This document shows positions 6,653 to 37,948 of a stretch of 64,000 bases of DNA, in pieces (position 1 is the stretch's first letter; every line of letters starts with the position of its first letter). The DNA is from Patescibacteria group bacterium. GTDB taxonomy: Bacteria > Patescibacteriota > Patescibacteriia > UBA2196. Made by a program: the position numbers and the translations under genes. The notes beneath the pieces were generated by a model. That model searched no databases. It was given only the letters and a program-made list of their open reading frames with translations, and was not told the DNA's origin. Location: NCBI GenBank assembly GCA_028748975.1, contig JAQTPI010000006.1, positions 366-64,365 of the forward strand, read 5' to 3'.

Positions 6653-6869
6653 CCTGCCGCCTTAAAAAAGTTTTGGTATAAAAGCGAGCTGAGTCGGAAC
6701 GGTTTTCTGCCGCAGCAGAAAAAATTTTGCTTCTGTCTGACGCAGTTCCGCCGAAGTCCTTAGAGGACGAGGCGGAACAAGGAGTTAACAAAATTAGTGA
6801 CGACGAGGTCGCTTTTGTCAAAACTTTTTTACAGCGGCGATTTTGGCGCCACCTTTATAAAAAGGTGGC
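6653..6869. repeat. structured ~215-bp intergenic element, copy 1 (downstream of infB, upstream of rbfA)
   Basis: About 93% identical to 60825-61038. The differences are compensatory within two hairpins. Terminal hairpin GCCACCTTT-ATAAA-AAGGTGGC. Confidence 0.7.
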
Positions 6870-6876
6870 AAGAAAA

Positions 6877-8880: not shown

Positions 8881-9133
8881 AAAGTTAAAAACTCAAAACA
8901 CAATAAACAAGAAGCAAGAATTAAGAGTTAAGAATTAAGGTTACTAGTCTTGAGTTTTGCTAATTGAGTTTTGGGTTTTGTAGTTTAATTCTATCATCTT
9001 CCCCTTATTTTGTAAACTCCTCGCATTTGACCTCTTTTCACTATCGCGATATACTGTATTATTAACCATTGAGATAGAGAAACTTATTTGTACTATTTGT
9101 ATATTTGTACTTGATTTGTAATTCGTATTATCT

Positions 9134-10288
9134 ATGTTAGAAATTAATCAACAAATCATCTCCCAAATTGAAAAAGCCCGTCAAATTTTGCTTGTTTTCA
9201 AGAAAAATTGGGAAACTGATTCCGTAGCGAGCGCCTTGGCTCTGTTTTTGTGGCTGAAAAAAACCGACAAACTGGTTGATGTCATGGCTGATGGCTTTAT
9301 AGCGCCGGCTGAATTAAAATTTTTACCCGCTCTTGAAGAAATCAAACCAGAACTTCATAATCTCCAAAAATTTGTTATCAACCTGAAATTAAATCAAAAC
9401 CAAGTTTCCGATTTTGCTTATGACACAGACGGCGATAATTTAAAAATTTTTCTCACGCCCAAAACCGGCGAATTTAAAGAAAGCGATGTCACGGCCGGCC
9501 AAAGCAATTTTCTTTATGATTTAATCATCACTGTGGACACGCCGGACCTTAATTCTTTGGGCGCTATCTATGAAAAAAATCTGGATTTCTTTTTCAACAC
9601 TCCTTTGATTAATTTTGACCACGCCACCGGAAACGAACATTTCGGACAAATTAATCTGATTGATGTCCGCGCCAATTCCACAGCTGAAATTATCTATCAA
9701 TTTCTCCATGACAATTTTTCTGCCAATTTTGATGAAAATATCGCCACCTGCCTGTTGGCGGGTATTATGGGCGCCACCACCGGTTTTAAAACAGGCAACA
9801 TTTCCCCGCAAACCCTGGGTATCACCTCTGAGTTATTGGCCCTTGGCTCCAACCGCGAACAAATTGTCCAAAATCTTTTTCACGCCAAATCACTTTCTGC
9901 TCTCAAACTTTGGGGCCGGCTTTTAGCCCGGCTCCAGCCTGACCGCGCCAATCATTTGGTCTGGTCGCTTCTTTCCTATGATGATTTCATCAAATCCGGC
10001 GCCACGCCCACTGATATCAAAGGCGCAGTCAAAGAATTAGTAACTTCTCTGCCACAGGCGGAAATTATTTTAATTTTGTACGAACAGCCCTCGGGCGAAG
10101 TCGGCACGGAAGCGCTCGCTGTCCACGGCCAGCTTTTCACTTCACCCAATTACAGCGCCCTGGATTTGGTGCGCGCCTTTCGCCCCGCCGGCGACAAAAC
10201 CTTTGCTCATTTTATTATTCCCGAAGCCAAACTCCTGGAGGCGGAGAAAATTATGATTGATGAAATCAGAAAAAAAATTGCGAATTAA
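9134..10288 (+). CDS. DHH-family phosphoesterase-like protein (second NrnA-like paralog)
   Basis: DHH-like motif FDHATGNEHFG and a Gly-rich DHHA1-like segment. 384 aa. Followed by a GC hairpin terminator at 10322-10362. Confidence 0.5.
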   Translation: MLEINQQIISQIEKARQILLVFKKNWETDSVASALALFLWLKKTDKLVDVMADGFIAPAELKFLPALEEIKPELHNLQKFVINLKLNQNQVSDFAYDTDGDNLKIFLTPKTGEFKESDVTAGQSNFLYDLIITVDTPDLNSLGAIYEKNLDFFFNTPLINFDHATGNEHFGQINLIDVRANSTAEIIYQFLHDNFSANFDENIATCLLAGIMGATTGFKTGNISPQTLGITSELLALGSNREQIVQNLFHAKSLSALKLWGRLLARLQPDRANHLVWSLLSYDDFIKSGATPTDIKGAVKELVTSLPQAEIILILYEQPSGEVGTEALAVHGQLFTSPNYSALDLVRAFRPAGDKTFAHFIIPEAKLLEAEKIMIDEIRKKIAN

Positions 10289-10405
10289 TAGCGAATTACC
10301 TGCTAATTTTGCGAATAAAAATCCGCCCCGATGCGCTTTGCGCCATCGGGGCGGATTTGATTAGTCTTATTCGCCTCCATTAGCATTATTAGCAATTATT
10401 AAACT

Positions 10406-12586
10406 TTATTCGTTTTCTATCAAAATTTGATTGCTCTGCTCGCGCCACTGTGTCGCCGGAATAGTCGGATGTACTGTTTGTTTGCCATTCTTTGCCAAAT
10501 CAAATATCTCTTGCGGGGTATAACCGCCATAAATGAAAGCATTAACCACCGCGCCCCAGGAAGTATTTTTCAAGGTTAAAATCTTACCGCCATTCAGCGC
10601 TTTCAGTTCATCTCTTAAAACTATAGCTGCGTTCTCTTCAGTTTTCAAATCACCCAGTCGCGACAAACCGTAAATTTTATTCTTATTAGTGGAAATTTTC
10701 TTGGCTTCCGGCGAGAGCGGACTATAACCGCTTTTAATTTCCGTCAAATCATCAAAGCCGTCGCCATCAGTGTCTTCTTTGTTTAGATCCGTGCCATAAA
10801 GTCCTTCTTGAAAATCAGTCAGGCCATCGCCATCAGTATCAAGTTTGTAATCAACCGCTACTGTTGTTGGTGTTGATGTTTGTGTTGGTGTTGATGTTTG
10901 TGAACCAAGGCTTGGTTTAGTGCCCGAACATAAACTGTCTGCCACCACGCTGCCATTATTGTCTTGGCATCTGACTGCCCAAGAATAAGTGGTATTGGCA
11001 CTGGTACAGCTCTGGCTCGTTGTCGGCTTGGTGTCGAAACATAAACTGTCAGCCGCCGCGGCGCCGGTATTATCTTTGCAAGACACGCTTCTTGTTTGCG
11101 TACTATTGGTGCAAGTTGACCACGCACCCGAAGACCAGGAATAAGTCGTTGTGGTGGTGGTTGAACAACTTTGATTGGTTGTTGGTTTAATGCCGGAGCA
11201 TAAACTGTCAGCCACTGTGGCACTATTTTTATCTTTACAAACCACAGTTCTGGTTTGTGTGTTACTAGAACAGGTTGACCAATCACCCGAGGTCCAAGTA
11301 TAAGTAATTCCAACACCCAAAGTTGATCCTGCCACCCAACTTGTCCAATCAGAGCAACCATTAGAATTGCAGGCTTGAACTTTGGCGCTGTAAGAACGAT
11401 TGGAACTTAAAGGATTAAATGGCGCGCCATAATTAGCTGTGTTAAAAGAAGCGCCAGTTACTTTTTGGGCATCACCTACGCCATCTACTTGGACATAATA
11501 ATATGTGGCACTGCTGACTGCGTCCCAACTCCAAGTAAGGGAAGTGCTGGTTGAACCGGTAGATTTAAAATTGGTGGGTTTATCTGGTTTTGTTGCCCAA
11601 GTCGTCCCGGCCACCCAACTTGTCCAATCAGAACAACCATTAGAATTGCAGGCTTGAACTTTGGCGCTGTAAGAACGATTGGAACTTAAAGGATTAAATG
11701 GCGCGCCATAATTAGCTGTGTTAAAAGAAGCGCCAGTTACTTTTTGGGCATCACCTACGCCATCTACTTGGACATAATAATATGTGGCACTGCTGACTGC
11801 GTCCCAACTCCAAGTAAGGGAAGTGCTGGTTGAATCTGTGGTTTTCAAATTTGTAGGAGATGTAGGAATACTCTCTATTCTTGTCACTTGTTTCACATAT
11901 GAACTGTAAGCAGAACAACCGCCGGTGTTGCAGGCCCTGACTTTTGCCTGATAGTCTGTGTTTGGTTGTAATCCAGAAAAAGTAGCGGATTTAATGGAAG
12001 AAATATTGTCTTCGGTAATTTTTTGTGTTTCATCAAAACCGCCATAAAAAGGCCGGTCCTTAACAACCTCATAATACGTCGCGCCGGACTGCGCGCTCCA
12101 CACCCATTTGATGGAAGTGCTGGTATACTCATCTACTTTCAAATCCGTGGGAGTGGTAGGAGGAGTGGGCGTGGTTACCACTGGCGTTGCTGCCGCTGGC
12201 GTCTGGGCTATATCTGAACTGGCCGAAAAAACAGAACAAATGGCATTGCAAGCTTTAACCCTAGCTATGTATGCTGTATTCGGCTTTAAACCTTTAAATT
12301 CATAAGATGTGACTTTTATATCATTAGCATACAGTGTTTCTGAACCACCAACAGAATATTCCCCAAGATAAACTTCATATCTGCTCGCGCTGGCCACCAC
12401 ATTCCAAGTAAAAGAAATTGAAGTTTCTTTAATTGATTGTGGTTGTATTTGTGGCTTCCCTGGCGCTAGGGGCATAATAATTGCTTTAGCCGAATTTGCC
12501 AACAAAAAAAGCTGACCCGAAGCCAAAGCCAGCGTAAGAGCAAATATCAAAAGACCTTTAAAATTCTTTTGCGCGCGTTTTTTCAT
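10406..12586 (-). CDS. secreted surface protein with fibronectin type III-like repeats, Cys-rich modules and calcium-binding DxDxDG repeats
   Basis: Signal peptide MKKRAQKNFKGLLIFALTLALASG. Repeated ~93-aa FN3-like units, two of them identical. Repeated TWTSGDWSTCS...TQTRTVVCKD modules. DTDGDGLTDFQEG and DTDGDGFDDLTEI thrombospondin-type-3-like Ca-binding motifs. Confidence 0.7.
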   Translation of the reverse strand: MKKRAQKNFKGLLIFALTLALASGQLFLLANSAKAIIMPLAPGKPQIQPQSIKETSISFTWNVVASASRYEVYLGEYSVGGSETLYANDIKVTSYEFKGLKPNTAYIARVKACNAICSVFSASSDIAQTPAAATPVVTTPTPPTTPTDLKVDEYTSTSIKWVWSAQSGATYYEVVKDRPFYGGFDETQKITEDNISSIKSATFSGLQPNTDYQAKVRACNTGGCSAYSSYVKQVTRIESIPTSPTNLKTTDSTSTSLTWSWDAVSSATYYYVQVDGVGDAQKVTGASFNTANYGAPFNPLSSNRSYSAKVQACNSNGCSDWTSWVAGTTWATKPDKPTNFKSTGSTSTSLTWSWDAVSSATYYYVQVDGVGDAQKVTGASFNTANYGAPFNPLSSNRSYSAKVQACNSNGCSDWTSWVAGSTLGVGITYTWTSGDWSTCSSNTQTRTVVCKDKNSATVADSLCSGIKPTTNQSCSTTTTTTYSWSSGAWSTCTNSTQTRSVSCKDNTGAAAADSLCFDTKPTTSQSCTSANTTYSWAVRCQDNNGSVVADSLCSGTKPSLGSQTSTPTQTSTPTTVAVDYKLDTDGDGLTDFQEGLYGTDLNKEDTDGDGFDDLTEIKSGYSPLSPEAKKISTNKNKIYGLSRLGDLKTEENAAIVLRDELKALNGGKILTLKNTSWGAVVNAFIYGGYTPQEIFDLAKNGKQTVHPTIPATQWREQSNQILIENE
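11325..11850. repeat. near-perfect tandem duplication (2 x 279 bp) inside the FN3 surface-protein gene
   Basis: Segments about 11332-11565 and 11611-11844 are identical except for 1-2 nt. They encode a duplicated 93-aa unit. Confidence 0.85.
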
Positions 12587-28803: not shown

Positions 28804-29091
28804 TTAAAGCTCTAACGGATAAATTTGTATGTGATAAATCCATAAATTGGAAAAAATAATTTTCCATTCAAACATGTCCTGCCAACCAGGCCTTGATTTT
28901 TTAAACTCTTCTACTAGCTTCCAAATGTTTTCTCTATTTAAAAGTTCCTTTGCTTCTTTTTCCGCTTCTTCCAAATTTTTTGCTTTCAATGGCACCGTCA
29001 TTCCGTCTGGTTCACCCTTTATTAAATCTGCCTGGCGATTTTTGAAAGACCATTTAACCGTAAATTCAAGTTTCCATCCCGGCATTTCCAT
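28804..29091 (-). CDS. hypothetical protein (95 aa)
   Basis: Intact ORF downstream of the Ubl terminator. No family recognised. Confidence 0.35.
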   Translation of the reverse strand: MEMPGWKLEFTVKWSFKNRQADLIKGEPDGMTVPLKAKNLEEAEKEAKELLNRENIWKLVEEFKKSRPGWQDMFEWKIIFSNLWIYHIQIYPLEL

Positions 29092-29210: not shown

Positions 29211-29507
29211 CTACCGGCCGTTGCCCTTGATGAATTTCGTCATGATGACGGTGTCGTTGGCCGACACGGGCTGGTCCAGCATCGCCATCTTGGTCTAGTC
29301 GACGAGGGTCGTATTCCACCGCAGTTCAAACTCGTCGCCACGGCCGACTACCGGCAGGTCGATTTGTTCTTTCGGCCCGCGGGCGGTATTGGCCACTTCG
29401 ATCGCTTCGCGCAGTGTCGTTCCTTCTTCCACATTGACTTCGGTCAGTCGTCCCGGGAATTTCCCCAGACGCATCGGAAAGTACCCGTATGTCCCTGTTT
29501 TCGTCAC
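29211..29507 (-). pseudogene. MoaD/ThiS-like ubiquitin-like beta-grasp protein interrupted by an in-frame TAG (29295-29297); 70 aa before the stop, 98 aa if read through
   Basis: RBS AAGGAGG then GTG at 29507. LTEVNVEEGTTLREAIEVA matches the MoaD/ThiS core. After the TAG the same frame continues with TKMAMLDQPVSANDTVIMTKFIKGNGR, which matches the MoaD C-terminal strand (xDGDxVxxxPPVSGG-like). Segment GC is about 58%. Confidence 0.55.
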
Positions 29508-29635
29508 TGTGAACCTCCTTGGTTTCCTGTTCTTGTTTGACCTCCCCAACACCACCCAATTTCTATTAATTTGCCTCTGTCATTCCCCCTTTCTTGGGCT
29601 AAGATGAGGATTTTAGATTATTTTTATTTTTGGCT

Positions 29636-29737
29636 AAAAATTAAGGCTCCACTTCACCTTAGCGTAATAAAAAAAACTTGTCAAATATTAATTAAGGTTC
29701 TACTTTACCCTAGCGCAGTAAAAAAAGTTTGTCAAAC
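29636..29737 (-). promoter_or_regulatory. two tandem copies of the cluster-specific promoter/leader module upstream of the Ubl gene
   Basis: On the minus strand: TTGACA-N17-TAAGGT and TTGACA-N17-TAGGGT, each followed by the conserved GAACCTTAA leader box. Confidence 0.55.
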
Positions 29738-30463
29738 AATGGTAAACTTTCGGCTATAAATTTGGGTCAGAGGACGCAGACCGAAAATCATCTCATTTTC
29801 CAATTCATCCTCTTCACCATCCAAAATGCTTTGCCAGCGCATCATCTGCCAGATTGCCAGACCGGACAAAATGTCCGAAGTCGGACCCACGCTGGGTTCA
29901 GACCGGCAGACAGAAGGAGTGGCATCTTCATCGGTATAATGCAGTGTCTCTTCATAACCTGCGACGTGAGCCGGATTAATGGGATTGACAACGTAAATTC
30001 TGCCCTGGTCAGCGCCCATTCTGGTTTCAATCACCAGTTTGACATTGGGTTTGTATTTCAACGAACCATTCCAAATGTCCACGCGGGATTTCATGGTGTC
30101 GGTTAAGACGAAAACCACCTCTCCCAAAGTTTGGATACCGTCCACGAATTCGTCGTGAATGGTAATTTCGGTTCCGGTTTTCAAGCGGATCCATTCCCGC
30201 ATAGCCTCAATTTTTTTCTTGCCTACATCGCTTGGAAAAAACCTGGTGTTGGGCACGTTATGGTCCACCACCACGTCTGTGTCATAAAGCTCGATATTGG
30301 GTACGCCCAGTTCGGCCACGCCCAGGGCCGCTTTGGAACCAGTGGATCCACTGCCAATTATGGTCACGAGTTTCTCACCGAATTTATAGGGTGAAAACAC
30401 ACCCAAATGTCTGTTAACATCAAGAATTATTCTTGGTGTTGGTGTCGCTGTTGTTTCCGGCAC
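29732..30463 (-). CDS. E1-like ubiquitin-activating enzyme family protein (ThiF/MoeB/HesA fold, minimal 243 aa)
   Basis: RBS AAGGAGG and GTG start. Gly-rich Rossmann loop IIGSGSTGS, LYDTDVVVDHNVPNTRFF (DxDxVxxxN.R motif), and a C...GVxGP-like catalytic loop VCRSEPSVGPTSDILSGLA. Confidence 0.7.
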   Translation of the reverse strand: MPETTATPTPRIILDVNRHLGVFSPYKFGEKLVTIIGSGSTGSKAALGVAELGVPNIELYDTDVVVDHNVPNTRFFPSDVGKKKIEAMREWIRLKTGTEITIHDEFVDGIQTLGEVVFVLTDTMKSRVDIWNGSLKYKPNVKLVIETRMGADQGRIYVVNPINPAHVAGYEETLHYTDEDATPSVCRSEPSVGPTSDILSGLAIWQMMRWQSILDGEEDELENEMIFGLRPLTQIYSRKFTIV

Positions 30464-30495: not shown

Positions 30496-31380
30496 TTAAT
30501 CGTATATGGTATTGTCTTCAAAACTGCCGCTTTTGTCAGCCAGATTGGTTCCTTGCTGAAAACCAACGGCCGCGGGGTCAGTACCGTAAGAACTGGTTTG
30601 ATAATACGGATAAACCGTTACTGGTTCCGGTTCTTTAATCACAATCTTATCTTTGATTACCTGCTGCCAATATTCGCGGCGAGCCGGATCAATCGGTTGG
30701 CGTTTGCCCAAAACTTCCCAAGGCGCATCCTCAATCAGTAAATTTTCTTCTATTAAATACAGGGTTACTTGCATCCGGCCGTCTTTATTAAAAATACACC
30801 GGATAAAATGGTCGTAGCAGTCCCCGACAAACTCATCCATTTGGTCCTCGTCCGGTCCGCTGGCAAATGTTCCCATATGAACATGGCAATGACCCCAATA
30901 GCGGATGGAGTTAAAAATCTCCGCGCCATTGGGACGGGTCAATATTTCTTGGGTAACCAACTCAGCTTGTCCACCCGGAGTCAGCTTGCATTCCGAACCG
31001 TGCACCTCTTGCCCGGGCACAAAAATCTCCTTGATGAAAAAATCTTGGCCCCGTTTCTCCACCCAACCCAAATTGCCGATTTCCACCCTCATTAAATCGG
31101 CCAGAATGAACTGGTCGTTGATAACGGTGGGGTCAAAATAGGTTATGGGAATATGCACATTTTGCGGCGGTGCGATAAAACTCACTTTTGGCACAAATTC
31201 ATGCTGTTTAAAATCTTTGGTCTTCCTGAATTTCTTTCGCCAACCCTTCCAGGTTCCTTTTTTCCAGGTTCCCTTGGTCCCGCCGCTTCCGACATAAATA
31301 ATTTTAGGCTCCTCTATTTTTTGTTCCGGTTTTGCCATCTCTGGTTTTGGGTCTGTCGCCACTTTGTCGGGCTTTGTCAT
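30496..31380 (-). CDS. JAB/MPN(+) domain metalloprotease (JAMM isopeptidase-like) with basic N-terminal extension
   Basis: Complete JAMM motif: upstream Glu (GQEVHGSE), then HCHVHMGTFASGPD, which is HxHx7Sx2D. 294 aa. Confidence 0.7.
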   Translation of the reverse strand: MTKPDKVATDPKPEMAKPEQKIEEPKIIYVGSGGTKGTWKKGTWKGWRKKFRKTKDFKQHEFVPKVSFIAPPQNVHIPITYFDPTVINDQFILADLMRVEIGNLGWVEKRGQDFFIKEIFVPGQEVHGSECKLTPGGQAELVTQEILTRPNGAEIFNSIRYWGHCHVHMGTFASGPDEDQMDEFVGDCYDHFIRCIFNKDGRMQVTLYLIEENLLIEDAPWEVLGKRQPIDPARREYWQQVIKDKIVIKEPEPVTVYPYYQTSSYGTDPAAVGFQQGTNLADKSGSFEDNTIYD

Positions 31381-31474: not shown

Positions 31475-33445
31475 TTATTTTTTTGCCTTTTCTACAATTG
31501 GCCAGTTATCAATATGCTGGCCCATGGGATCGTTATAATTCGCCGATTCCAAAAAAACAATGCACATAATCAATAATGGCATGAAATCAAAACGGGCAAT
31601 CAATTGCGGTAAAACTTCTTCCATCTCGGCGCCCAGACAGGCATGGCCATCCTCAAATACGTGGGGAGCATTGTGTCCGCCTATCTTTTGCGTCAAATTA
31701 AAAAATCTGATTTGGTTGCAATCGCCATTAAGCGGAATAACAATCCGGAAAGCGCCAATCAAGTGTATTTGGTCTTTTCTCGGATGTTTGCAGAATAAAA
31801 TATCAGTATCCACTATTAACTGGTTTTTGATGCAGCTGACTTTTCTTATCTTTTCCAATTGCCGCATTTTTTCAAAATCAATGGCAAATTGCTTCCGGTA
31901 AACTCCGCCATCCTTCTTCTTGCCATCCGCCACCTCTTTTAAGGCATCGTATTTTCTAATCGCGGTCACCAGTTGGATTTGCAAACTGTTTACCCGGTTG
32001 GCCACTTCCGTCAATTCTTCCTTGGCGTCCTTAATAATTGACTCTTTATTTTGCAGACAAGTGTTGGCGTAGGCCTGTCCTTGTGCTGTCCGCATCTTGG
32101 CTTCCTGTTTTTGTCTTTCCGCTGTTGTGCTTGTTAAAAGACTGGCCACGGCTTGCATCAACTTTTTAAAAATCTTTTTATATTCTTCGTCCGCTCCCAA
32201 AATAGGGAAGGGAATATAAAGATTTCTGCCCGCTATGATTTGTCCGGCCTCTTGGCCGTCCTCATCATATATTATTTTCCCTTCGTTGGTAATCTGAAAA
32301 GATCCGCTTTTGGTTGGCAGAGGAATTCTCCAAAGCTGTTTGGGTGTTAAAAACCCCTGTCTGATGCTTTCCGTTGGCGCGGCAAAAAAATAAATATGAA
32401 ACATGTTGTCATAGCGCGGCAGGTCTCTCATCCGAAACTCGCCTCCGCCGTTATGCAAACAGATGCTCCGCCTAATCTTTGTCATTAATTCCCGGCTGAT
32501 GATGGGCGCGTAAACACGCCTGACTAATTCCAGCTCTCTGCTGTTAAAACCCCCAGAATCAATTACCATCGACCTGTCTATCTCTATGCCCTCCAGTTTT
32601 TTGGAGTCTTTCTTTTTTTCCGGTTCCACTGCTTTAACTGGCCGCCGAAACCTTTTCAGTTGGGAAAAAACTTCCGGCGCCACCACCGCTTCCAGAATTT
32701 TTCTAAAAATAGTAAGTTCTGACTCGCGGCCATAATGACACAGGTCGTGAAAAATATAAAGAGTGTTTTCGCCCACCAGCTCGGCCACCGCATATCTTTT
32801 GTCTCTAATCACTATGCCTTGGCCGCTGGGTGCGAAAGATTCATCATCACAAGCCACCCTTGTTCCCCAAATCTTCTCAGGTGTCTGGGTTTCCGTGTCA
32901 CCGCTTTCTGACGGGGCCGACCAAATGCGGATATGGAAAACATCGCCTTCAGCCGGGCTGGTATGTTTTCGATGCGGCACGCTGATGACAATTTCTGTTC
33001 CAATTTTTGGTAAAAGAATTTCTTTGGCTAATTTACGAAATCGGCTGCTGCCCTCGCCGTTCCAATCTTTGATTTTCACCTGGCAATCAGCGCCTCTGTC
33101 TTTTTTTGAATTATCAAAAATTACTCTTTGTATGATTCTTTTTTGTTCCTTGGTGATGGCCGAAGTGTTTTTCCACCATTTTAAATCATCGCCCTTGGCA
33201 TATTCCGGATCCAAACCGGTTATCTCCGCAATCTCCAGTTTAAAAACTCCGGTGATCTCGGTTGGTAATTCTGCCAAACTCATTTTTTTTAGGGCTCTTA
33301 ATCCCTGGCTTAACTGTGTTTCGTCCAAAACAATGCCTTTTTTACTGCCCATCTCAAAGTCGGCAAAAATGACCTTTTGGGCATTTAAAGCCGCTTTTTT
33401 ACTCTCGTCAATAGCTGGCAAAAAATAATTTCTCACCACTTCCAT
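31475..33445 (-). CDS. large paralog 1 (656 aa): internal duplicated domain, coiled coil, C-terminal UBC/E2-like domain with putative catalytic Cys (GHACLG)
   Basis: RBS AAGGAGG. C-terminal FRIVIPLNGD...IRFFNLTQKIGGHNAPHVFEDGHACLG...LLIMCIVFLESANYNDP aligns with the UBC-fold pattern F.L.I.FP.DYP...HPN...G.ICLDIL...LLSICSLL.DPNPDDP. Confidence 0.6.
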   Translation of the reverse strand: MEVVRNYFLPAIDESKKAALNAQKVIFADFEMGSKKGIVLDETQLSQGLRALKKMSLAELPTEITGVFKLEIAEITGLDPEYAKGDDLKWWKNTSAITKEQKRIIQRVIFDNSKKDRGADCQVKIKDWNGEGSSRFRKLAKEILLPKIGTEIVISVPHRKHTSPAEGDVFHIRIWSAPSESGDTETQTPEKIWGTRVACDDESFAPSGQGIVIRDKRYAVAELVGENTLYIFHDLCHYGRESELTIFRKILEAVVAPEVFSQLKRFRRPVKAVEPEKKKDSKKLEGIEIDRSMVIDSGGFNSRELELVRRVYAPIISRELMTKIRRSICLHNGGGEFRMRDLPRYDNMFHIYFFAAPTESIRQGFLTPKQLWRIPLPTKSGSFQITNEGKIIYDEDGQEAGQIIAGRNLYIPFPILGADEEYKKIFKKLMQAVASLLTSTTAERQKQEAKMRTAQGQAYANTCLQNKESIIKDAKEELTEVANRVNSLQIQLVTAIRKYDALKEVADGKKKDGGVYRKQFAIDFEKMRQLEKIRKVSCIKNQLIVDTDILFCKHPRKDQIHLIGAFRIVIPLNGDCNQIRFFNLTQKIGGHNAPHVFEDGHACLGAEMEEVLPQLIARFDFMPLLIMCIVFLESANYNDPMGQHIDNWPIVEKAKK

Positions 33446-33464
33446 GCTTCTTCCTCCTTTTAAG

Positions 33465-33541
33465 CTGGGTTTTTAAGGTTCATCTTCACTGTTTTTAGTG
33501 AATAGCTAACCTTAGCAAAACTAAAAAACCTTGTCAAGTAA
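33465..33541 (-). promoter_or_regulatory. promoter/leader module of paralog 1
   Basis: Minus strand: cTTGACA-N17-TAAGGT, hairpin TTCACT-N6-AGTGAA, GAACCTTAAAAACC box, AAGGAGG, ATG. Confidence 0.55.
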
Positions 33542-33601
33542 TAAAATAAATAAAAAACGGTCTGCTTTGCCAGCAGGCCGTTATCTTGAAAACATTTATT
33601 T

Positions 33602-35563
33602 TTATTTTTGTTCCGTAACTATTGGCCAGTCCGCCACCCGCTCTCCGGCGCTCGCCTGGCCCTCTGCCGTTTCCAGAAAAATAAGACACATGGTTATCAA
33701 TGGTCCAAAATCAAACCGGGCGATTAATTGCGGTAAGATTTCTTGCAGCTGGCTGCCAAAGTAAGCCTGGCCATCCGGCGCCACGTTGGGAGCATTAAAT
33801 TCGTTAACCCGCCGTGTCAGATTAAAAAATCTGATATCCTCGCAATTGCCCCAAAAAGGGATAAAAATCTGGAAAGCGCCAATCAGGCGTGTTTCTTTTT
33901 TGCTGTAGAAAAGAGTGTTGGTCTCCACTATAAGACAATCCGGGGTGAAAGTAATCTGCCTTATCTTTTCCAGTCGCCCCATTTTCTCAAAATCAGCGCT
34001 AAACTTCTCTTGGTCGCCACCCTTTCTTTTGCCCTCGGTTGCTTCCTTCAGCGCATCATGCTTTCTGATGGCCGCTATCAACTGTGTTTGAAAATTTTTG
34101 ATTTGCCTGGTAATATCCACAAACTCAGCCGCGGCATCTTTCTTGATCAAATCTTTATACTGCCAACAAATGGCGGCATAAGCTTTTCCTTTGGCTGCCC
34201 GCATTTCTTCTTCCCACTGCTGCCTTTCCGCTGCCGTACTGGTAAAAAGCCTGGCCACTTCTGCCATTAAACAGGTAAAAATCCGTTGCAATGTTTTTTG
34301 GTCGGAAAATAAAAAAAATGGAATATAAAGATTTCGGCCGCCGATAATTTGCCCGACTCTTTGTCCAGCATCATCATAAACCATTACCCCTTCCCTGGTA
34401 ATCGGGCAAGGGTTATTCCCGGCCGGCAAACTAATGCCCCATAATTTATTTGATGAAGAAAATTGTCTGCCCGCCATTGAATTGGTAAAAAATATATGAA
34501 ACACCTCGTCATAAAAAGGTAATGGCTGTTGTCTTATGCTCCTATTTTTATGCAGGCAAACGCCGCGCTTAATTTTTGCCATTAATTCCCGCGCGATAAT
34601 TGGAGCATAAACTTTTCTAGCCAAAGCGCATTCTTCTGAGCTAAACCCCGGTAATTCCATCGTCAGTGTTTTATTTATATCTATTTTTTTGCTTTCCAAT
34701 TCTTTTGATTTTGTTTCTTTTTTTACTGGAGCTGGCCGCCGAAACCTTTTCAGTTGGGAAAAAACTTCCGGCGCCACCACCGCTTCCAGAATTTTTCTAA
34801 AAATAGTAAGTTCTGACTCGCGGCCATAATGACACAGGTCGTGAAAAATATAAAGGGTGTTTTCGCCCACCAGCTCGGCCACTGCGTAGTTGTTTGTCTT
34901 GTCTTTAATAACTAGGCCAAGGCCGCTCGCTGGAAAAGATGCGTCACCGCAAGCCACTTCTGTTCCCCAGATAGTTGGGGGTGTGCGAACCTCTCTGGAT
35001 CCGCTCTTCAATGGTGCCGACCAGATGTAGATATAAAAATTATCATCTGCAACCGGTTCTTTTTGGTCTCCATGTGGCACGCTGATAAAAATGTTTGTTT
35101 TAATTCTGGGCCAAAGAATTTCTTCGGCTAGCTGGCAATAATCTTCGCTGTTACTGCGTCCGTCCCAATGATCAACTGTCACAAAACCCGACCCATCCTC
35201 CTCTTCTATTGTTTCTTCTTTTTTCAAACTCTCACCAATCTTTTCCTGTAAAAATCTCCGTTGCTCTGCCGCCAGGGTGTAGCTATTTTTGCACCACCTC
35301 AAATCATCGCCTTGGGCATATTCCGGATCCGCCCCTGTGATGTCAATGGTCAAAAGCTTGAAAGCTCCCTCAATCCCGGTGGACAGTTCCGCCAAGATTG
35401 CTTTGTTTAAAGCTCTCAATCCCTGAAGTAATTGGGTTTCGTCCAAAATAATGCCCTGTTCGCCTCCCAGTTCAAAATCGGCAAAAATGACCTTGTGGGC
35501 GTTTAAAGCTGTTTTTTGTGCCGCATTGACAGCTGCTAAAAAATAGCTTCTGACAACTTCCAT
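33602..35563 (-). CDS. large paralog 2 (653 aa): same architecture, E2-like active-site Cys/His replaced (DGQAYFG)
   Basis: 52-aa block identical to paralog 1. C-terminal domain is present but lacks the Cys and the NYNDP motif. Confidence 0.6.
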   Translation of the reverse strand: MEVVRSYFLAAVNAAQKTALNAHKVIFADFELGGEQGIILDETQLLQGLRALNKAILAELSTGIEGAFKLLTIDITGADPEYAQGDDLRWCKNSYTLAAEQRRFLQEKIGESLKKEETIEEEDGSGFVTVDHWDGRSNSEDYCQLAEEILWPRIKTNIFISVPHGDQKEPVADDNFYIYIWSAPLKSGSREVRTPPTIWGTEVACGDASFPASGLGLVIKDKTNNYAVAELVGENTLYIFHDLCHYGRESELTIFRKILEAVVAPEVFSQLKRFRRPAPVKKETKSKELESKKIDINKTLTMELPGFSSEECALARKVYAPIIARELMAKIKRGVCLHKNRSIRQQPLPFYDEVFHIFFTNSMAGRQFSSSNKLWGISLPAGNNPCPITREGVMVYDDAGQRVGQIIGGRNLYIPFFLFSDQKTLQRIFTCLMAEVARLFTSTAAERQQWEEEMRAAKGKAYAAICWQYKDLIKKDAAAEFVDITRQIKNFQTQLIAAIRKHDALKEATEGKRKGGDQEKFSADFEKMGRLEKIRQITFTPDCLIVETNTLFYSKKETRLIGAFQIFIPFWGNCEDIRFFNLTRRVNEFNAPNVAPDGQAYFGSQLQEILPQLIARFDFGPLITMCLIFLETAEGQASAGERVADWPIVTEQK

Positions 35564-35584
35564 GTTTCTGCCTCCTTTTCCATT

Positions 35585-35660
35585 AAATTTTTAAGGTCTG
35601 TTTGCTTCACTCTACTGGTGAATATTTCAGCTTAGCAAAACTTATCCCGCCTGTCAAGTT
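35585..35660 (-). promoter_or_regulatory. promoter/leader module of paralog 2
   Basis: TTGACA-N17-TAAGCT, hairpin TTCAC...GTGAA, CAGACCTTAAAAATT box, AAGGAGG. Confidence 0.55.
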
Positions 35661-35795
35661 TATTTTCTAAATAAAAATATAACAAAAAATAAAAAAACGG
35701 TCCAATAATTCGCCAGTTAGCGAATCGGACCGTTTGTTGAATTTTGAATTTTTATTATTTTTCGCTCAGTTTAAATATTTAAATCCAGACGAATC

Positions 35796-37790
35796 TTAGC
35801 TGGTTTTGCGTTTTCCTTTGTCCGCTTCCTCTTGTCCTGTTTTTACCAGCGGCCATTGATCAACATGTCTGCCGATATCATCAAGGTTCGCTGATTCCAA
35901 AAAAATAATGCACATAATAACAATTGACGTGAAATCAAAACGAGCCATCAGCTCTGGTATAATTTCATGCATCTCCCTGCCCAGACAGGCATGGCCGTCA
36001 GCATATACGTGGGGAGCGTTCATTCGGCTGTCATGCGCATTAATCAGCTGTGTCAAGTTAAAAAATCTGAGATCATTGCAGCTGCCCTTAAAAGGAATAA
36101 CGATCTGAAAAGCGCCGATCAGGCGTATTTCTTTATTAGTAGGGTGCTGGTAATAAAGAATATCAGTCTCCACAATCAGGTGGGTCTTGGTGAAAGAAGC
36201 CCATCTTATCTTGTCCAGTTGCCCTATTTTCTCAAATTCAGCGGCAAATCTCTCTTGATATAATTCTTTGCCCTCCTTTTTGTCCTCAACTACTCCTCTT
36301 AAAATATCCTGCCTTCTGTTGGCCGCTACCAATTGCGTTTGCAGATTTTTTATTTGGCTACCAGTCTCAGTCAGTTCCTGGCCGGCAGTTTCTTTTTTAA
36401 TTTTGGCAAGAATCGCCTCTTTGTAGTTTTGGCAAACACGAGCATAAGTTATTTTTTGAATTGCCATCAGCCCGGCTTCCCGCTGCTGCCTTTCGGCCGC
36501 CGTGCTCTTTAAAAGCCAGTTTACTTCTTCCAATAAACGAATAAAAAACTCTTTGTTTTCTTTGGTCTCAAAAGTTAAATAAAAAGGAAGGTAGAGATTG
36601 TTGCCATTAATGAGCCAAGCCACGACTTGGCCTTGGTTGTCATAAATCGCCCTTCCCTTGTTTAAGATCACTAGGGAGTTCTTGGGGTTATCCAATTTTA
36701 TGTTGATTCCCCAAGGCGTCGGTGGACTCAATGGCGCGTTTTTAATTGCCAGTCCCGGCGAGGCTCCCAAAAAAACATGGAACATATTATCATAAAAAGG
36801 CTGAGTTTTTTTGCCAAATTCCCCGCCATGTAAACACACGTTTCTTTTAATGACTGGGGTCAGCACCTGTTTAACTATCTTGGCTGCTTCTCCGTAAAGT
36901 CTTTCAAAAAAAATTCGTGAAGAAAAATCATTTGCGCCAGCTATGAAAACTTCTTGATCCAACCAATCAGCTGGTTTTTTTTCTTTTTCTTTCACTGCCA
37001 AGGCCTCAATAATAGCCATGGTTCTGGCGATTCCCTCTTCAAATATTCTTAACTCGTTTTCATCCCCGTTGTGGCTACAAATATCATGATGAAAATACAA
37101 ATTATTCATGCCGATTAATTCGGCTACCGCGTAGCCCGTGGCTTCATCCACCAGCGAAACTCCCAGACCACTGTCCACCGTACCAATACCACGATCTGAC
37201 ACTTCAATTCCCCAAATACTCTCCGGGGGACTCTTTGTGTTATGGCTTCCGCAACTGGGAGCGGCATGAAGGTGGATATAAAAATCCGAACCCAAAATCG
37301 GATCTGTCCAACCAGATTGTTTATGGATCTGGACCTTCTTTTTTATTTTTGGAGTTATGTTCTTCATTGCCAGCCGGGTAAAAGAATTGTCATCCGGCCA
37401 TTTCCGCCAATCTTGCCGAGCCGCCTTAATCCAATTTATTTCTCCTTCTCGCTCTTGTTCCGGCGGACATAAATAATTAAATAATAATTCCTTTGCCGCC
37501 TCCGGAATCTTCAAAATATTTTTGTACCAGTTCAATTCCTCTCCGGCTTCATAACCAGCATCGGGTTCCATCGGAACTAACAGAGTTTGATAAACTCCTC
37601 TCGCCCCAGTTGGTTGTTCCCAAAGTATGGCTTTTCGCAGCCGCAGTAAACAATGTTTAATTTGTGTCTCCTCAACCAAAATTTTTTGTCCATCTCCTGG
37701 TGTGACTCTGGAAAATTTCACGCCCTGCTGGGTTAAAAATGCCTCTTCCTCTCTGGTTACCATTAAAAGGAATTTTTTTGGTTCTTCCAT
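35796..37790 (-). CDS. large paralog 3 (664 aa): divergent member with intact E2-like motif NAPHVYADGHACLG...FLESANLDD
   Basis: Colinear with paralogs 1 and 2 at about 35-40% identity outside the conversion tract. Same promoter/leader module upstream. Confidence 0.6.
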   Translation of the reverse strand: MEEPKKFLLMVTREEEAFLTQQGVKFSRVTPGDGQKILVEETQIKHCLLRLRKAILWEQPTGARGVYQTLLVPMEPDAGYEAGEELNWYKNILKIPEAAKELLFNYLCPPEQEREGEINWIKAARQDWRKWPDDNSFTRLAMKNITPKIKKKVQIHKQSGWTDPILGSDFYIHLHAAPSCGSHNTKSPPESIWGIEVSDRGIGTVDSGLGVSLVDEATGYAVAELIGMNNLYFHHDICSHNGDENELRIFEEGIARTMAIIEALAVKEKEKKPADWLDQEVFIAGANDFSSRIFFERLYGEAAKIVKQVLTPVIKRNVCLHGGEFGKKTQPFYDNMFHVFLGASPGLAIKNAPLSPPTPWGINIKLDNPKNSLVILNKGRAIYDNQGQVVAWLINGNNLYLPFYLTFETKENKEFFIRLLEEVNWLLKSTAAERQQREAGLMAIQKITYARVCQNYKEAILAKIKKETAGQELTETGSQIKNLQTQLVAANRRQDILRGVVEDKKEGKELYQERFAAEFEKIGQLDKIRWASFTKTHLIVETDILYYQHPTNKEIRLIGAFQIVIPFKGSCNDLRFFNLTQLINAHDSRMNAPHVYADGHACLGREMHEIIPELMARFDFTSIVIMCIIFLESANLDDIGRHVDQWPLVKTGQEEADKGKRKTS

Positions 37791-37811
37791 GATTTTTACC
37801 TCCTTAAGTTA

Positions 37812-37884
37812 GGTTTTTAAAGTTCGTTTTCACTTCTTAAAGTGAGTACTTTAACTTAGCAAAATTAAAAAGAGTTGTCAAGTG
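37812..37884 (-). promoter_or_regulatory. promoter/leader module of paralog 3
   Basis: TTGACA-N17-TAAGTT, hairpin TCACTT...AAGTGA, GAACTTTAAAAACC box, AAGGAGG. Confidence 0.55.
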
Positions 37885-37948
37885 AGAAAAAATCAAAAAC
37901 CGTTCCGACACAATGTCGGAACGGCTCTTGTTTTTTGAAAAATCAAAA

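Follow-up and report, generated by a model that had tools for sequence, protein, structure and literature searches.

Three tandem genes in a 64,000-nt stretch of DNA from a Patescibacteria bacterium (hereafter the window) are best explained as members of a large family of E2-like (UBC-fold) multidomain proteins that had not been annotated before, a reading to which we give a probability of about 0.65. They are adjoined by genes for a JAB peptidase, an E1 and a ubiquitin-like protein (Ubl), and we regard this cassette as a previously undescribed variant among the ubiquitin-like conjugation systems of bacteria. Each of the four elements of the initial annotation was supported, among them gene conversion, internal duplication and one paralog with a degenerate E2 active site, with corrections of detail given below.

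Three tandem paralogs and their domains

The three genes are intact minus-strand ORFs and tandem paralogs, P3 (664 aa), P2 (653 aa) and P1 (656 aa). In the paralog alignment, protein identity was 55% for P1/P2, 40% for P1/P3 and 38% for P2/P3.

35796..37790, minus strand: P3, E2-like paralog, 664 aa, triad intact (His594, 36009-36011; Cys602, 35985-35987; Asn635, 35886-35888); from ORF and paralog alignment
33602..35563, minus strand: P2, E2-like paralog, 653 aa, degenerate active site (Asn593 for His, 33785-33787; Tyr601 for Cys, 33761-33763; Glu634 for Asn, 33662-33664); from ORF and paralog alignment
31475..33445, minus strand: P1, E2-like paralog, 656 aa, triad intact (His595, 31661-31663; Cys603, 31637-31639; Asn636, 31538-31540); from ORF, paralog alignment and AlphaFold2 models
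37791..37948, minus strand: P3 upstream unit with terminator hairpin, TTGACA-N17-TAAGTT promoter-like site, leader hairpin and AAGGAGG (repeat families D7, D10)
35564-35795, minus strand: P2 upstream unit, homologous to that of P3 (D7, D10)
33446-33601, minus strand: P1 upstream unit, homologous to that of P3 (D7, D10)

P2 has a separate promoter-like site and a ribosome-binding site of its own. The array was probably built by duplicating complete transcription units in tandem, each with its terminator, promoter-like site, leader and gene, at a period of approximately 2.1–2.2 kb. The age of the array is addressed by a sister genome, in which a P3 ortholog (71% identical) lies at the equivalent position after VanW and KhpA and is followed by a P2 ortholog, the same order as in the window. 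Conservation of this P2 ortholog was seen over the N-terminal 150 aa; a search for P1 or P2 orthologs with the C-terminal half found none.

Each paralog consists of an N-terminal alpha/beta domain, two modules of approximately 135 aa, a helical segment of approximately 90 residues and an E2-like C-terminal domain, located in P1 as follows.

32660..33082, minus strand: module 1, alpha/beta, ~135 aa, ~aa 122-262 (hhalign against module 2)
32126..32548, minus strand: module 2, ~aa 300-440 (hhalign against module 1)
31862..32125, minus strand: long helical (coiled-coil-like) segment, ~aa 441-528, starting with STTAERQ
31496..31861, minus strand: UBC/E2-fold domain, ~aa 529-650

The two tandem module copies proposed for each protein were borne out by hhalign, which aligned module 1 with module 2 at 99% probability (E = 7.9e-18, 119 columns, 25% identity), so that the internal duplication is significant in a profile-profile comparison. 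Among 156 proteins (about 150 search representatives, the window paralogs and other hits), 1 to 5 module copies were present per protein. No match to the module was found among PDB sequences. The segment described as starting with STTAERQ was likewise recovered, with the STTAERQ/STAAERQ motif opening a long helix, which the AlphaFold2 model places at residues 441-511 and 513-528.

The AlphaFold2 model of the C-terminal domain (pLDDT 89.5) showed canonical UBC topology. When its profile was compared with PDB sequences, 9 of the 11 matches were UBE2L3 or UBE2L3-derived, at an E value (~0.6) not significant by itself; in this alignment GaFRIeI falls on GAFRIEINF and aPHVxxxGxaCLG on HPNIDEKGQVCLP. 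The family motif APH[VI]xxxGxxCLGN thereby comes to lie opposite HPN...Cys of UbcH7, and the UbcH7 residue matched to the family cysteine is one that we take to be the catalytic Cys86. Canonical eukaryotic E2s (UBC, Pfam UQ_con; UBE2S, UBE2L3) share with the model the order a1-b1-b2-b3-b4-loop-a2-a3-a4 and a His-containing tripeptide (HPN there, APH here) 7 or 8 residues before the cysteine. They differ in that the Asn of HPN is replaced here (APH[VI]), an ESVN motif without obvious counterpart is conserved in the C-terminal helices, and a large N-terminal extension is present.

The E2-like proteins gave no match above noise with models of Pfam, NCBIfam, PADLOC and PHROGs. The family comprises 3064 clusters at 50% identity (E<=1e-3), or 720 at E<=1e-30, and its members are proteins of 450–1100 aa with an N-terminal domain, 1–5 modules and a long helical segment.

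The conserved cassette and its possible role

The remaining components of the cassette are also on the minus strand, downstream of P1.

30496..31380, minus strand: JAB/JAMM-type peptidase, 294 aa, probably co-transcribed with P1 (motif, conserved position)
29732..30463, minus strand: single-domain E1, ThiF-type adenylating enzyme, 243 aa (Pfam ThiF, 5e-12)
29211..29513, minus strand: Ubl (beta-grasp) gene ending in ..FIKGNGR, with in-frame TAG at 29295-29297 (sequence reading, alignment)
29190-29165: terminator hairpin at the Ubl gene

The JAB motif E...HxHx7Sx2D was invariant in 10 homologs, 5 of which gave weak Prok-JAB matches, and the position of the gene is conserved across related loci. 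In the E1, the P-loop and the cysteine (GxGxTGS and SxC) were invariant in 11 homologs, with 43–55% identity across loci; the invariant C186 is placed in the crossover loop by our own comparison with E. coli ThiF. The Ubl was aligned with its counterpart genes from six related Saccharibacteria/Paceibacterota loci, which end in KIKGN or KIRGN; four of these genes follow the E1 and one, in locus L007, precedes the JAB gene. Because TAG serves as a normal stop in this organism, the cascade may be crippled here, or the sequence of this metagenome-assembled genome (MAG) may contain an error at that base.

A further 14 loci carry the cassette of E2-like, JAB, E1 and Ubl genes; their sources are Saccharibacteria, Paceibacterota and Melainabacteria, together with one IMG/VR contig and an unclassified metagenome contig. 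Of the 12 GTDB loci holding all three, 11 have the order E2-like, JAB, E1, which also occurs in loci L015 and L018. Ubl genes, often poly-Ubl, were common to 10 loci. Among the 13 clustered loci, no gene family beyond the four components was shared and no E3 gene was recognised.

The relay through thioesters, the choice of targets by the modules and the formation of heteromers are inferred, as is the biological role. The JAB peptidase would trim the Ubl precursor at the terminal K/R-G-N; the Ubl C-terminus would be adenylated by the E1, taken onto the invariant E1 cysteine and handed to the cysteine in the APHVxxxGxACLGN loop of the E2-like domain, with targets presumably chosen by the N-terminal domain and the repeated modules.

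Bil (BilABCD; operon class 6d, Iyer et al. 2006) resembles the cassette in having Ubl, E2, JAB/JAMM and E1 as separate proteins, no recognised E3 gene, an E2 presumed to pick the target and a Ubl that is often multi-domain (PMC11601596; PMC1779556). In contrast to BilD, an IAD-AAD-CYS multidomain protein (PMC11601596), the E1 here is a single adenylation domain, and the E2-like proteins carry the additional N-terminal domain, modules and helical segment. The histidine upstream of the cysteine, absent from class 6d E2 (PMC1779556), is kept. The cassette also differs from Bil in the K/R-G-N end of the Ubl, in its distribution in Patescibacteria and Melainabacteria and in its housekeeping context. 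Type II CBASS Cap2/Cap3 likewise includes a JAB partner, and the E1 matched PADLOC E1-E2 models at ~1e-10; however, Cap2 is an E2-E1 fusion that conjugates the CD-NTase, neither CD-NTase nor effector is present here, and the E2-like proteins reached PADLOC E2 models only at the level of noise (E 0.02–0.03).

The cassette could act in anti-phage defence of the Bil type, with the paralogs as diversified sensors, each for a different phage protein, and the degenerate copy as decoy or regulator; we consider this possible but unlikely. Phage defence is the function of every bacterial E1/E2/Ubl/JAB operon so far characterised, namely Type II CBASS, Bil and probably Bub, and direct target recognition has been proposed for Bil E2 proteins (PMC11601596; PMC10557695). 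Consistent with such a role, the N-terminal regions are the fastest-diverging part of the paralogs, module number is variable, and one homologous locus lies on the IMG/VR contig. Against it, the neighbours are housekeeping genes (YchF, S6, SSB, EF-P, RecA, FtsK, KhpA, VanW, Hsp20), synteny is conserved in the sister genome, the E2-like and JAB proteins have no PADLOC match, no mobile-element genes were seen, and the cassettes of Saccharibacteria and Paceibacterota lie within large chromosomal contigs. A defence role would concern function only and is compatible with the biochemical explanation.

Near-identical tract shared by P1 and P2

P1 and P2 share a near-identical tract encoding the last strands and helix of module 1 and the start of the following linker.

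32638..32788, minus strand: P1 copy, 151 nt, one mismatch with the P2 copy
34732..34882, minus strand: P2 copy, 151 nt

The existence of the tract agrees with the initial annotation; the span of 152–153 nt given there takes in a second mismatch at the edge. Repeat search paired 32638-32794 with 34732-34888 at 98% identity. The tract contains an exact run of 124 nt, whereas permuting the match/mismatch vector 10,000 times gave no run longer than 41 nt (P<1e-4). The encoded block of 52 aa is identical as claimed, every residue of P2 Y226-P277 being invariant. The flanks are more diverged than the tract, but the figure of 50–60% was not reproduced: identity over the whole P1/P2 alignment was 66%, and most 30-codon windows outside the tract were at approximately 45–80%. 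Identity at third codon positions was 96–100% in the tract and approximately 25–70% elsewhere; dS (Nei-Gojobori), computed by region as had been proposed, was 0.09 in the tract and 1.0–2.9 in the other regions. On the 5′ coding side identity rose gradually towards the tract (75, 83, 93%), and on the 3′ side it dropped abruptly.

Because the loss of synonymous divergence is localised (0.09 versus at least 1) and has a sharp 3′ edge, the sequences support the proposed recent gene conversion, a non-reciprocal exchange between tandem P1 and P2 with a classic signature. P1 and P2 would have exchanged approximately 150 nt at the end of module 1 after the array had formed.

It is improbable that the tract is an assembly or consensus artefact, one paralog's sequence having been pasted onto the other by bulge-popping or mis-polishing. 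The window is a MAG contig, the tract is about one short-read length, E2-like paralogs of other loci have no such tract, and the in-frame stop of the Ubl gene may point to flaws in the consensus. However, the contig is unbroken through both copies, each flanked by unique diverged sequence; one mismatch persists within the tract; the gradual fall of identity on the 5′ side is the pattern expected of nested, older exchanges and not of a pasted block; and the reading frame is preserved in both copies. Assemblers also tend to break contigs at repeats, not to homogenise sequences 60–70% identical.

The degenerate active site of P2

The triad His, Cys, Asn, intact in 165 of 193 family domains, is replaced in P2 by Asn, Tyr and Glu. 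P2 has NAPNVAPDGQAYFG and FLETAEGQAS where P1 and P3 have NAPHV..DGHACLG and FLESAN(Y/L)(N/D)D, so that the paralog alignment agrees with the earlier reading of DGQAYFG for DGHACLG and loss of the SANYNDP motif. Judged from sequence, P1 and P3 would be catalytically competent, and P2 would keep the fold without the three residues.

P2 had been proposed as a regulatory or decoy copy. The non-catalytic role is retained, but a free decoy is not favoured, as 18 of 22 degenerate domains were demonstrably paired with an intact one, in an adjacent gene or a fusion. Such pairs recur across the family: long intact and short degenerate genes in Melainabacteria loci; in L015 an intact gene followed by a degenerate one of 289 aa sharing the His-to-Asn change of P2; in L018 a gene of 453 aa with Cys to Val behind an intact one of 535 aa; and in six proteins an intact first domain fused to a degenerate second one. 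This nearly constant pairing suggests that P2 is a non-catalytic UEV-like partner, most likely joining an active paralog in a heteromer, probably via the long helical segment.

That P2 is instead a decaying duplicate (an incipient pseudogene), its active site lost under relaxed selection, is quite unlikely. Three conserved positions are lost, lineage-specific changes in the C-domain are somewhat more numerous than in P1 (24 versus 15), and the premature stop in the neighbouring Ubl gene might mean that the system is eroding. However, the 653-aa ORF is intact and has its promoter-like and ribosome-binding sites, and every structural invariant position is retained. Pairwise dN/dS to P1, a value not specific to the P2 lineage, was 0.26 overall (0.12 for the helical segment), and the relative-rate test against P1 was not significant (chi2 2.1). 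The ortholog in the sister genome is conserved over its N-terminal 150 aa, and degenerate partners have arisen repeatedly and independently, some fused to intact domains.

We think it very unlikely that the C-domain is a UBC-superfold binding module (RWD/UEV-like) with its conserved cysteine serving another purpose, the proteins being scaffolds rather than conjugating enzymes. Least probable is a P2 still catalytic through the Tyr of DGQAYFG as oxyester-forming nucleophile, by analogy with the Bub pathway: the Cys-to-Tyr change also occurs in another family member (P0076), but the accompanying His and Asn are lost too, the position holds no consistent nucleophile in other degenerate members (Gly, Ala, Val, Lys, Asp, Leu, Phe or Arg), TGY to TAY takes one mutational step, and the cognate E1 retains its cysteine. 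Bub (6E/DUF6527) forms Tyr and Ser oxyesters with an E1 and E2 lacking catalytic cysteines, whereas cysteines are kept here in the E1 and in two of the three E2-like proteins; nor were the Ubl-E2 or E2-E1 fusions and the DUF6527 protease of Bub seen here.

The UEV-like partner reading has its counterpart in eukaryotic E2/UEV pairs (Ubc13 with Mms2 or Uev1a), although pairing here is deduced from adjacency and fusion only, and association would presumably be via the long helical segment, not a direct UBC-UEV interface. Within the bacterial family the degenerate copies had independent origins, P2 being closest to P1.

Tandem E2-like genes and their domain architecture

The three tandem paralogs were found as intact open reading frames, followed downstream on the same strand by three further genes, encoding a JAB protein, an E1 and a Ubl, which complete the cassette:

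37790..35796, minus strand, P3, E2-like protein of 664 aa
35563..33602, minus strand, P2, E2-like protein of 653 aa
33445..31475, minus strand, P1, E2-like protein of 656 aa

The three proteins were alignable end to end, with identities of 55% (P1/P2), 40% (P1/P3) and 38% (P2/P3), and their exact sequences are deposited at NCBI as 'MAG: hypothetical protein' of Patescibacteria group bacterium, on a contig of 65 kb; the NCBI locus tags are PHT40_02965 to PHT40_02975. The array was flanked by housekeeping genes (YchF, ribosomal protein S6, SSB, EF-P, RecA, FtsK, KhpA, VanW and Hsp20). Neither the E2-like nor the JAB proteins could be placed in a family of Pfam, NCBIfam, PADLOC or PHROGs; the PADLOC E2 models scored E values of 0.02-0.03 against the E2-like proteins, which is noise level.

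Modelling of the C-terminal domain (C-domain) alone by AlphaFold2 with 38 diverse homologs gave a pLDDT of 89.5 and a pTM of 0.84. The modelled order, a1-b1-b2-b3-b4-loop-a2-a3-a4, was that of the UBC/E2 superfold, with a1, an antiparallel sheet of four strands, an active-site loop and three C-terminal helices. Matches of the C-domain profile to PDB sequences were all sub-threshold (E about 0.6), and 9 of 11 were UBE2L3 or derived from it. In the alignment to UbcH7, GaFRIeI fell on GAFRIEINF and aPHVxxxGxaCLG on HPNIDEKGQVCLP, the family cysteine being paired with the residue that we take to be the catalytic Cys86. A loop cysteine after b4, with a preceding HPN-like tripeptide, was present in P1 (His595 and Cys603) and P3 (His594 and Cys602); P2 has Asn593 and Tyr601 and thus lacks the catalytic E2 motif. 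Pfam, including UQ_con and Prok-E2_A-E, gave no match to the whole proteins (E<=0.1) or to the 38 C-domains (E<=1). Because the PDB matches were sub-threshold and no Pfam E2 family was matched, the C-domain is assigned as a probable E2 from structure prediction, motif geometry and gene context, not from a sequence-family match.

An internal duplication within each paralog had been proposed in the initial annotation, and it was borne out by profile-profile comparison of the two repeated units of about 135 aa, modules 1 and 2 (probability 99%, E 8e-18, 119 columns); self-BLASTP of each paralog did not pick up the repeat. Of 156 family proteins, comprising about 150 search representatives, the window paralogs and other hits, 99 carried a single copy of the module, 44 carried two copies and 8 carried three to five. 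The full-length AlphaFold2 model, of modest confidence (pLDDT 68), placed an N-terminal alpha/beta domain before the two modules, followed by a helix of about 70 residues (441-511), a second helix (513-528) and the C-terminal alpha/beta domain. Foldseek comparison of this low-pTM model with PDB returned no match (best E 0.41), nor did the module profile match any PDB sequence. The modules were ruled out as cryptic UBC repeats, since hhalign detected no relation to the C-domain (probability 0.6%). The modular N-terminal extension may stand in for an E3.

Duplication in the array and probable sequence exchange

A repeat search of the window paired 32638-32794 with 34732-34888 at 98% identity. 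Compared base by base, the tract common to P1 and P2 was 151 nt long (32638-32788 and 34732-34882); a single position differed, and 124 nt matched without interruption, in an alignment with 66% nucleotide identity as a whole. When the match vector was permuted 10,000 times, no run was longer than 41 nt. Third codon positions were 96-100% identical within the tract and about 25-70% identical in other regions. Correspondingly, Nei-Gojobori dS was 0.09 within the tract and 1.0-2.9 in all remaining regions. The 3' edge of the tract was abrupt, and on the 5' coding side identity decayed stepwise (93, 83 and 75%). The gene conversion between P1 and P2 proposed earlier is thus supported: the tract bears the marks of a non-reciprocal exchange that took place recently between neighbouring paralogs. 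An artefact of assembly or consensus could leave a similar tract, and the failure to find conversion tracts between E2-like paralogs of the other fetched loci speaks for one; it is nevertheless improbable, as a mismatch is kept inside the tract, the 5' edge is graded and the flanks are unique. An exact run of 18 nt between P3 and P1 (P about 0.009) was not accepted as conversion. Scanning of JGI metagenomes revealed no near-identical genome and no close orthologs of P1 or P2.

Upstream of each paralog, a homologous unit was found, consisting of a terminator-like hairpin, a promoter-like site (TTGACA-N17-TAAGnT), a leader that contains a UUCAC...GUGAA hairpin, and the sequence AAGGAGG:

37791-37948, upstream unit of P3
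35564-35795, upstream unit of P2
33446-33601, upstream unit of P1

The fold z-score was notable for the P1 leader only (-2.7). Since the upstream unit is repeated at every paralog, it was entire transcription units that were duplicated to form the array, in which they recur about every 2.1-2.2 kb. The sister genome, with about 77-85% nucleotide identity, carried VanW, KhpA and the orthologs of P3 and P2 in the same order. Its P3 ortholog was 71% identical in amino acid sequence, and the first 150 aa of its P2 ortholog were 68% identical to P2 and 53% to P1. The P3/P2 split, at least, is therefore older than the divergence of the two genomes. The sister genome, whose reads are filed under SRR22388184 and SRR22387777, was represented by contigs from two independent samples, L013 (4893-5342) and L014 (3816-4265). 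Both contigs break off at the same base of the P2 ortholog, after 150 codons; a repeat common to another paralog could be the cause.

Degeneracy of P2 and pairing with intact domains

For the count of active-site residues, 193 C-domains were aligned to the family HMM. The His/Cys/Asn triad (APH, xxC and ESVN) was complete in 165 of the 193, and the His upstream of the Cys was kept in 85% of the family domains. In P2 the triad reads Asn/Tyr/Glu, which agrees with the degenerate active site described in the initial annotation. A Leu-to-Phe change beside the Cys position of P2 is tolerated in intact members. All structural invariants were retained in P2 (in P1 domain numbering, G61, P91, G102, L112, P146, T44, N80, G97, F128, G139 and W145). 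The overall dN/dS of P2 versus P1 was 0.26, a pairwise value that is not assignable to the P2 lineage alone; within the helical segment it was 0.12. With P3 as the outgroup, unique changes in the C-domain numbered 24 in P2 and 15 in P1, a difference that was not significant. The intact reading frame, the dN/dS of 0.26 and the lack of a significant excess of changes argue against decay of P2.

Degenerate domains recurred elsewhere in the family. In Melainabacteria loci, a long intact gene was directly followed by a gene of about 290 aa with Thr/Gly/Glu or Arg/Cys/Gly. L015, a JGI contig, had an intact 642-aa gene and then a 289-aa gene with Asn/Ala, the His-to-Asn change being that of P2, and in the IMG/VR contig L018 an intact 535-aa gene preceded a 453-aa gene with Cys changed to Val. 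Six family proteins had two C-domains, the first intact and the second degenerate: P0048 (LLS), P0024 (NCD), P0022 (QFN), P0029 (NCN), P0043 (RCD) and P0073 (KRA). Two others, P0013 and P0143, had two UBC-like domains that were both intact. In total, 18 of the 22 degenerate domains adjoin an intact domain or are fused behind one. As the nearest relative of P2 is P1, loss of the triad in P2 was independent of the losses elsewhere.

Gene fusion and adjacency are classical evidence for functional partnership, and the intact/degenerate pairs parallel the E2/UEV pairs of eukaryotes. P2 resembles a UEV in having kept the fold positions and lost the Cys; partnership is suggested by the 18/22 pairing. 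Because degenerate domains recur fused or next to intact ones in the manner of E2/UEV, a non-catalytic partner is favoured for P2 over a pseudogene or the decoy suggested earlier. Catalysis by P2 through a tyrosine oxyester, a mechanism reported for Bub (PMC11601596), would make use of the Tyr at the Cys position. It is unlikely because the His and Asn are lost as well and because a nucleophile is missing from this position in the other degenerate members.

The cassette, its relatives and its possible role

Further features of the cassette and its downstream side were as follows:

29650-29740, minus strand, two tandem promoter-like motifs, TTGACAA..TTTTTT..GCTA(A/G)GGT, past the stop codon of E1 and ahead of the Ubl gene
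29211-29513, minus strand, Ubl gene, small beta-grasp protein
29295-29297, in-frame TAG in the Ubl gene
28804-29091, minus strand, 95-aa ORF downstream of Ubl, with its own TTGACA promoter-like site, ribosome-binding site (AAGGAGG) and terminator, and no family match except a weak one to DUF6065 (E 0.001)

The JAB protein (294 aa) contained the JAMM motif E...HxHx7Sx2D, of which E100, H164, H166, S174 and D177 were invariant in 10 homologs. Pfam Prok-JAB matched 5 of the 10, weakly (best E 0.033), and no PDB sequence was matched by the JAB profile. The E1 (243 aa; homologs 228-243 aa) was of ThiF type (Pfam 5e-12) with a single ThiF domain; its GxGxTGS loop and SxC cysteine, the latter presumably in the crossover loop judging from our comparison with ThiF, were invariant in 11 homologs. 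The Ubl ends ..FIKGNGR. Its in-frame TAG lies within a short insertion relative to homologs, and past it the frame runs on to ..DTVIMTKFIKGNGR, aligning with intact homologs whose last residues are KIKGN or KIRGN. The gene has 57% GC, and the window 42%. TAG recoding was rejected as the reason for this stop because TAG is a normal stop here, terminating 4 of the window's 37 long ORFs. The stop therefore means either that this organism has an impaired cascade or that the consensus contains an error at this base.

A word-indexed protein search had little sensitivity for the family, with 4 matches each for P1 and P3 and 1 for the C-domain profile, and an exhaustive HMM search gave 3064 clusters at 50% identity, 720 of them at E<=1e-30. 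All 10 clusters sampled had no name but 'hypothetical protein'. Scanning one genome per GTDB species, with the closer subset of the family alignment as the query, identified 12 loci (7 in Saccharibacteria, 1 in Paceibacterota, and 4 in Melainabacteria or Obscuribacterales). E2-like, JAB and E1 genes were present together in 11 of these, and in that order in ten; in L007 the E2-like gene followed E1, and the L011 contig ends before the JAB and E1 positions. The same order was found in L015 and L018. When the ORFs of the window and of the 12 GTDB loci were clustered all against all, the four cassette components were common to them and no further family was. L018 (IMGVR_UViG_3300028883_000032, 206 kb) is classified as viral and carries the cassette at 6852-11381, with JAB and E1 placed after the intact and degenerate E2-like pair; the contig could come from a large phage or be a Patescibacteria fragment that was misclassified.

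The Ubl proteins of related loci end in Lys/Arg-Gly-Asn. Those of Melainabacteria had three tandem repeats, each ending RPVRGN, and that of L015 had two, ending RPVVGN:

L008 4604-5485, L012 5479-6351 and L015 9417-9926, Ubl in repeat form, ends RPV(R/V)GN
L004 10296-10649, L006 10029-10292 and L007 5106-5348, Ubl of other loci, ends Lys/Arg-Gly-Asn

The multi-repeat forms are probably poly-Ubl precursors. A repeated Ubl with a residue after the Gly recalls the polyubiquitin precursor with its capping residue.

Bacterial Ubl conjugation is a young field, the characterisation of Type II CBASS, Bil and Bub dating from 2023-2024. The gene complement of the cassette is that of Bil (class 6d), with Ubl, E2, JAB and E1 as separate genes of one operon. 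In contrast, the Bil E1, BilD, is a multidomain IAD-AAD-CYS protein (PMC11601596), whereas the cassette E1 is one ThiF domain of 243 aa. The class 6d E2 has no classical upstream His and carries a conserved His C-terminal to the Cys (Iyer et al. 2006, PMC1779556), whereas the family E2 has the upstream His, and its His...Cys loop is nearer to the eukaryotic HPN...Cys than is that of the class 6d (Bil-type) E2; the family E2 also differs in its large modular extension. Bub systems have a serine protease, DUF6527, together with E1 and E2 proteins that lack catalytic cysteines, and Ubl-E2 or E2-E1 fusions, whereas the E1 and E2 cysteines of the cassette are conserved and its genes are separate. 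DUF6527 (Pfam) was absent from the operon proteins, the 95-aa ORF, KhpA and ten flanking genes, and no additional family was common to the 13 clustered loci. CBASS Cap2, an E2-E1 fusion accompanied by a CD-NTase, does not apply to the cassette. Because of these differences from Bil, Bub and CBASS Cap2, we place the cassette outside every named family, as a new form of bacterial Ubl-conjugation operon. No description of the family was found in the literature searched. The locus points to a further operon family, a large one for which Pfam, NCBIfam, PADLOC and PHROGs have no model. Most of the loci examined belong to Patescibacteria and Melainabacteria, whose genomes were largely absent from the earlier operon surveys consulted.

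From the invariant-Cys E1 together with the Ubl and JAB genes, we infer that the E2-like Cys would receive Ubl from E1 as a Ubl~Cys thioester. The thioester relay, recognition of targets by the modules, and heteromer formation are all proposals. Genomic context favours a housekeeping role, and precedents favour defence. In the reading that we put forward tentatively, at a probability of roughly 0.3, the cassette is an unrecognised chromosomal Ubl system, widespread among Patescibacteria and Melainabacteria, that acts on host proteins and works as an active-E2/UEV-like heteromer. It would serve housekeeping or stress proteostasis rather than phage defence, with the active E2 and the degenerate UEV-like paralog joined via the long helical segment. 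Such a heteromer would be the bacterial equivalent of Ubc13-Uev1a, having arisen more than once, and would be accompanied by poly-Ubl precursors with repeats ending Gly-Asn. The recurrent pairing of intact and degenerate E2 domains offers a concrete hypothesis, that pseudo-E2 partners exist in bacteria, and the three-paralog array is a natural experiment in enzyme diversification through unit duplication, active-site loss and gene conversion. If the system does act on host proteins, the known roles of prokaryotic Ubl tagging would be widened.

Additional ORFs were observed beside the cassette in some loci:

L004 9929-10285 and L005 9945-10262, ORF of 105-118 aa between E1 and Ubl in two Saccharibacteria loci
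L008 11149-end, L010 11188-end and L012 12019-end, ClpC-type AAA+ look-alike directly after E1 in Melainabacteria

The Saccharibacteria ORF ends ..DYVIxxGDxxxL.. and may be a second beta-grasp protein. The Melainabacteria gene resembles, by eye, a chaperone of this type with a Clp N-terminal domain; its position after E1 could be due to chance or could reflect a link between tagging and unfolding.
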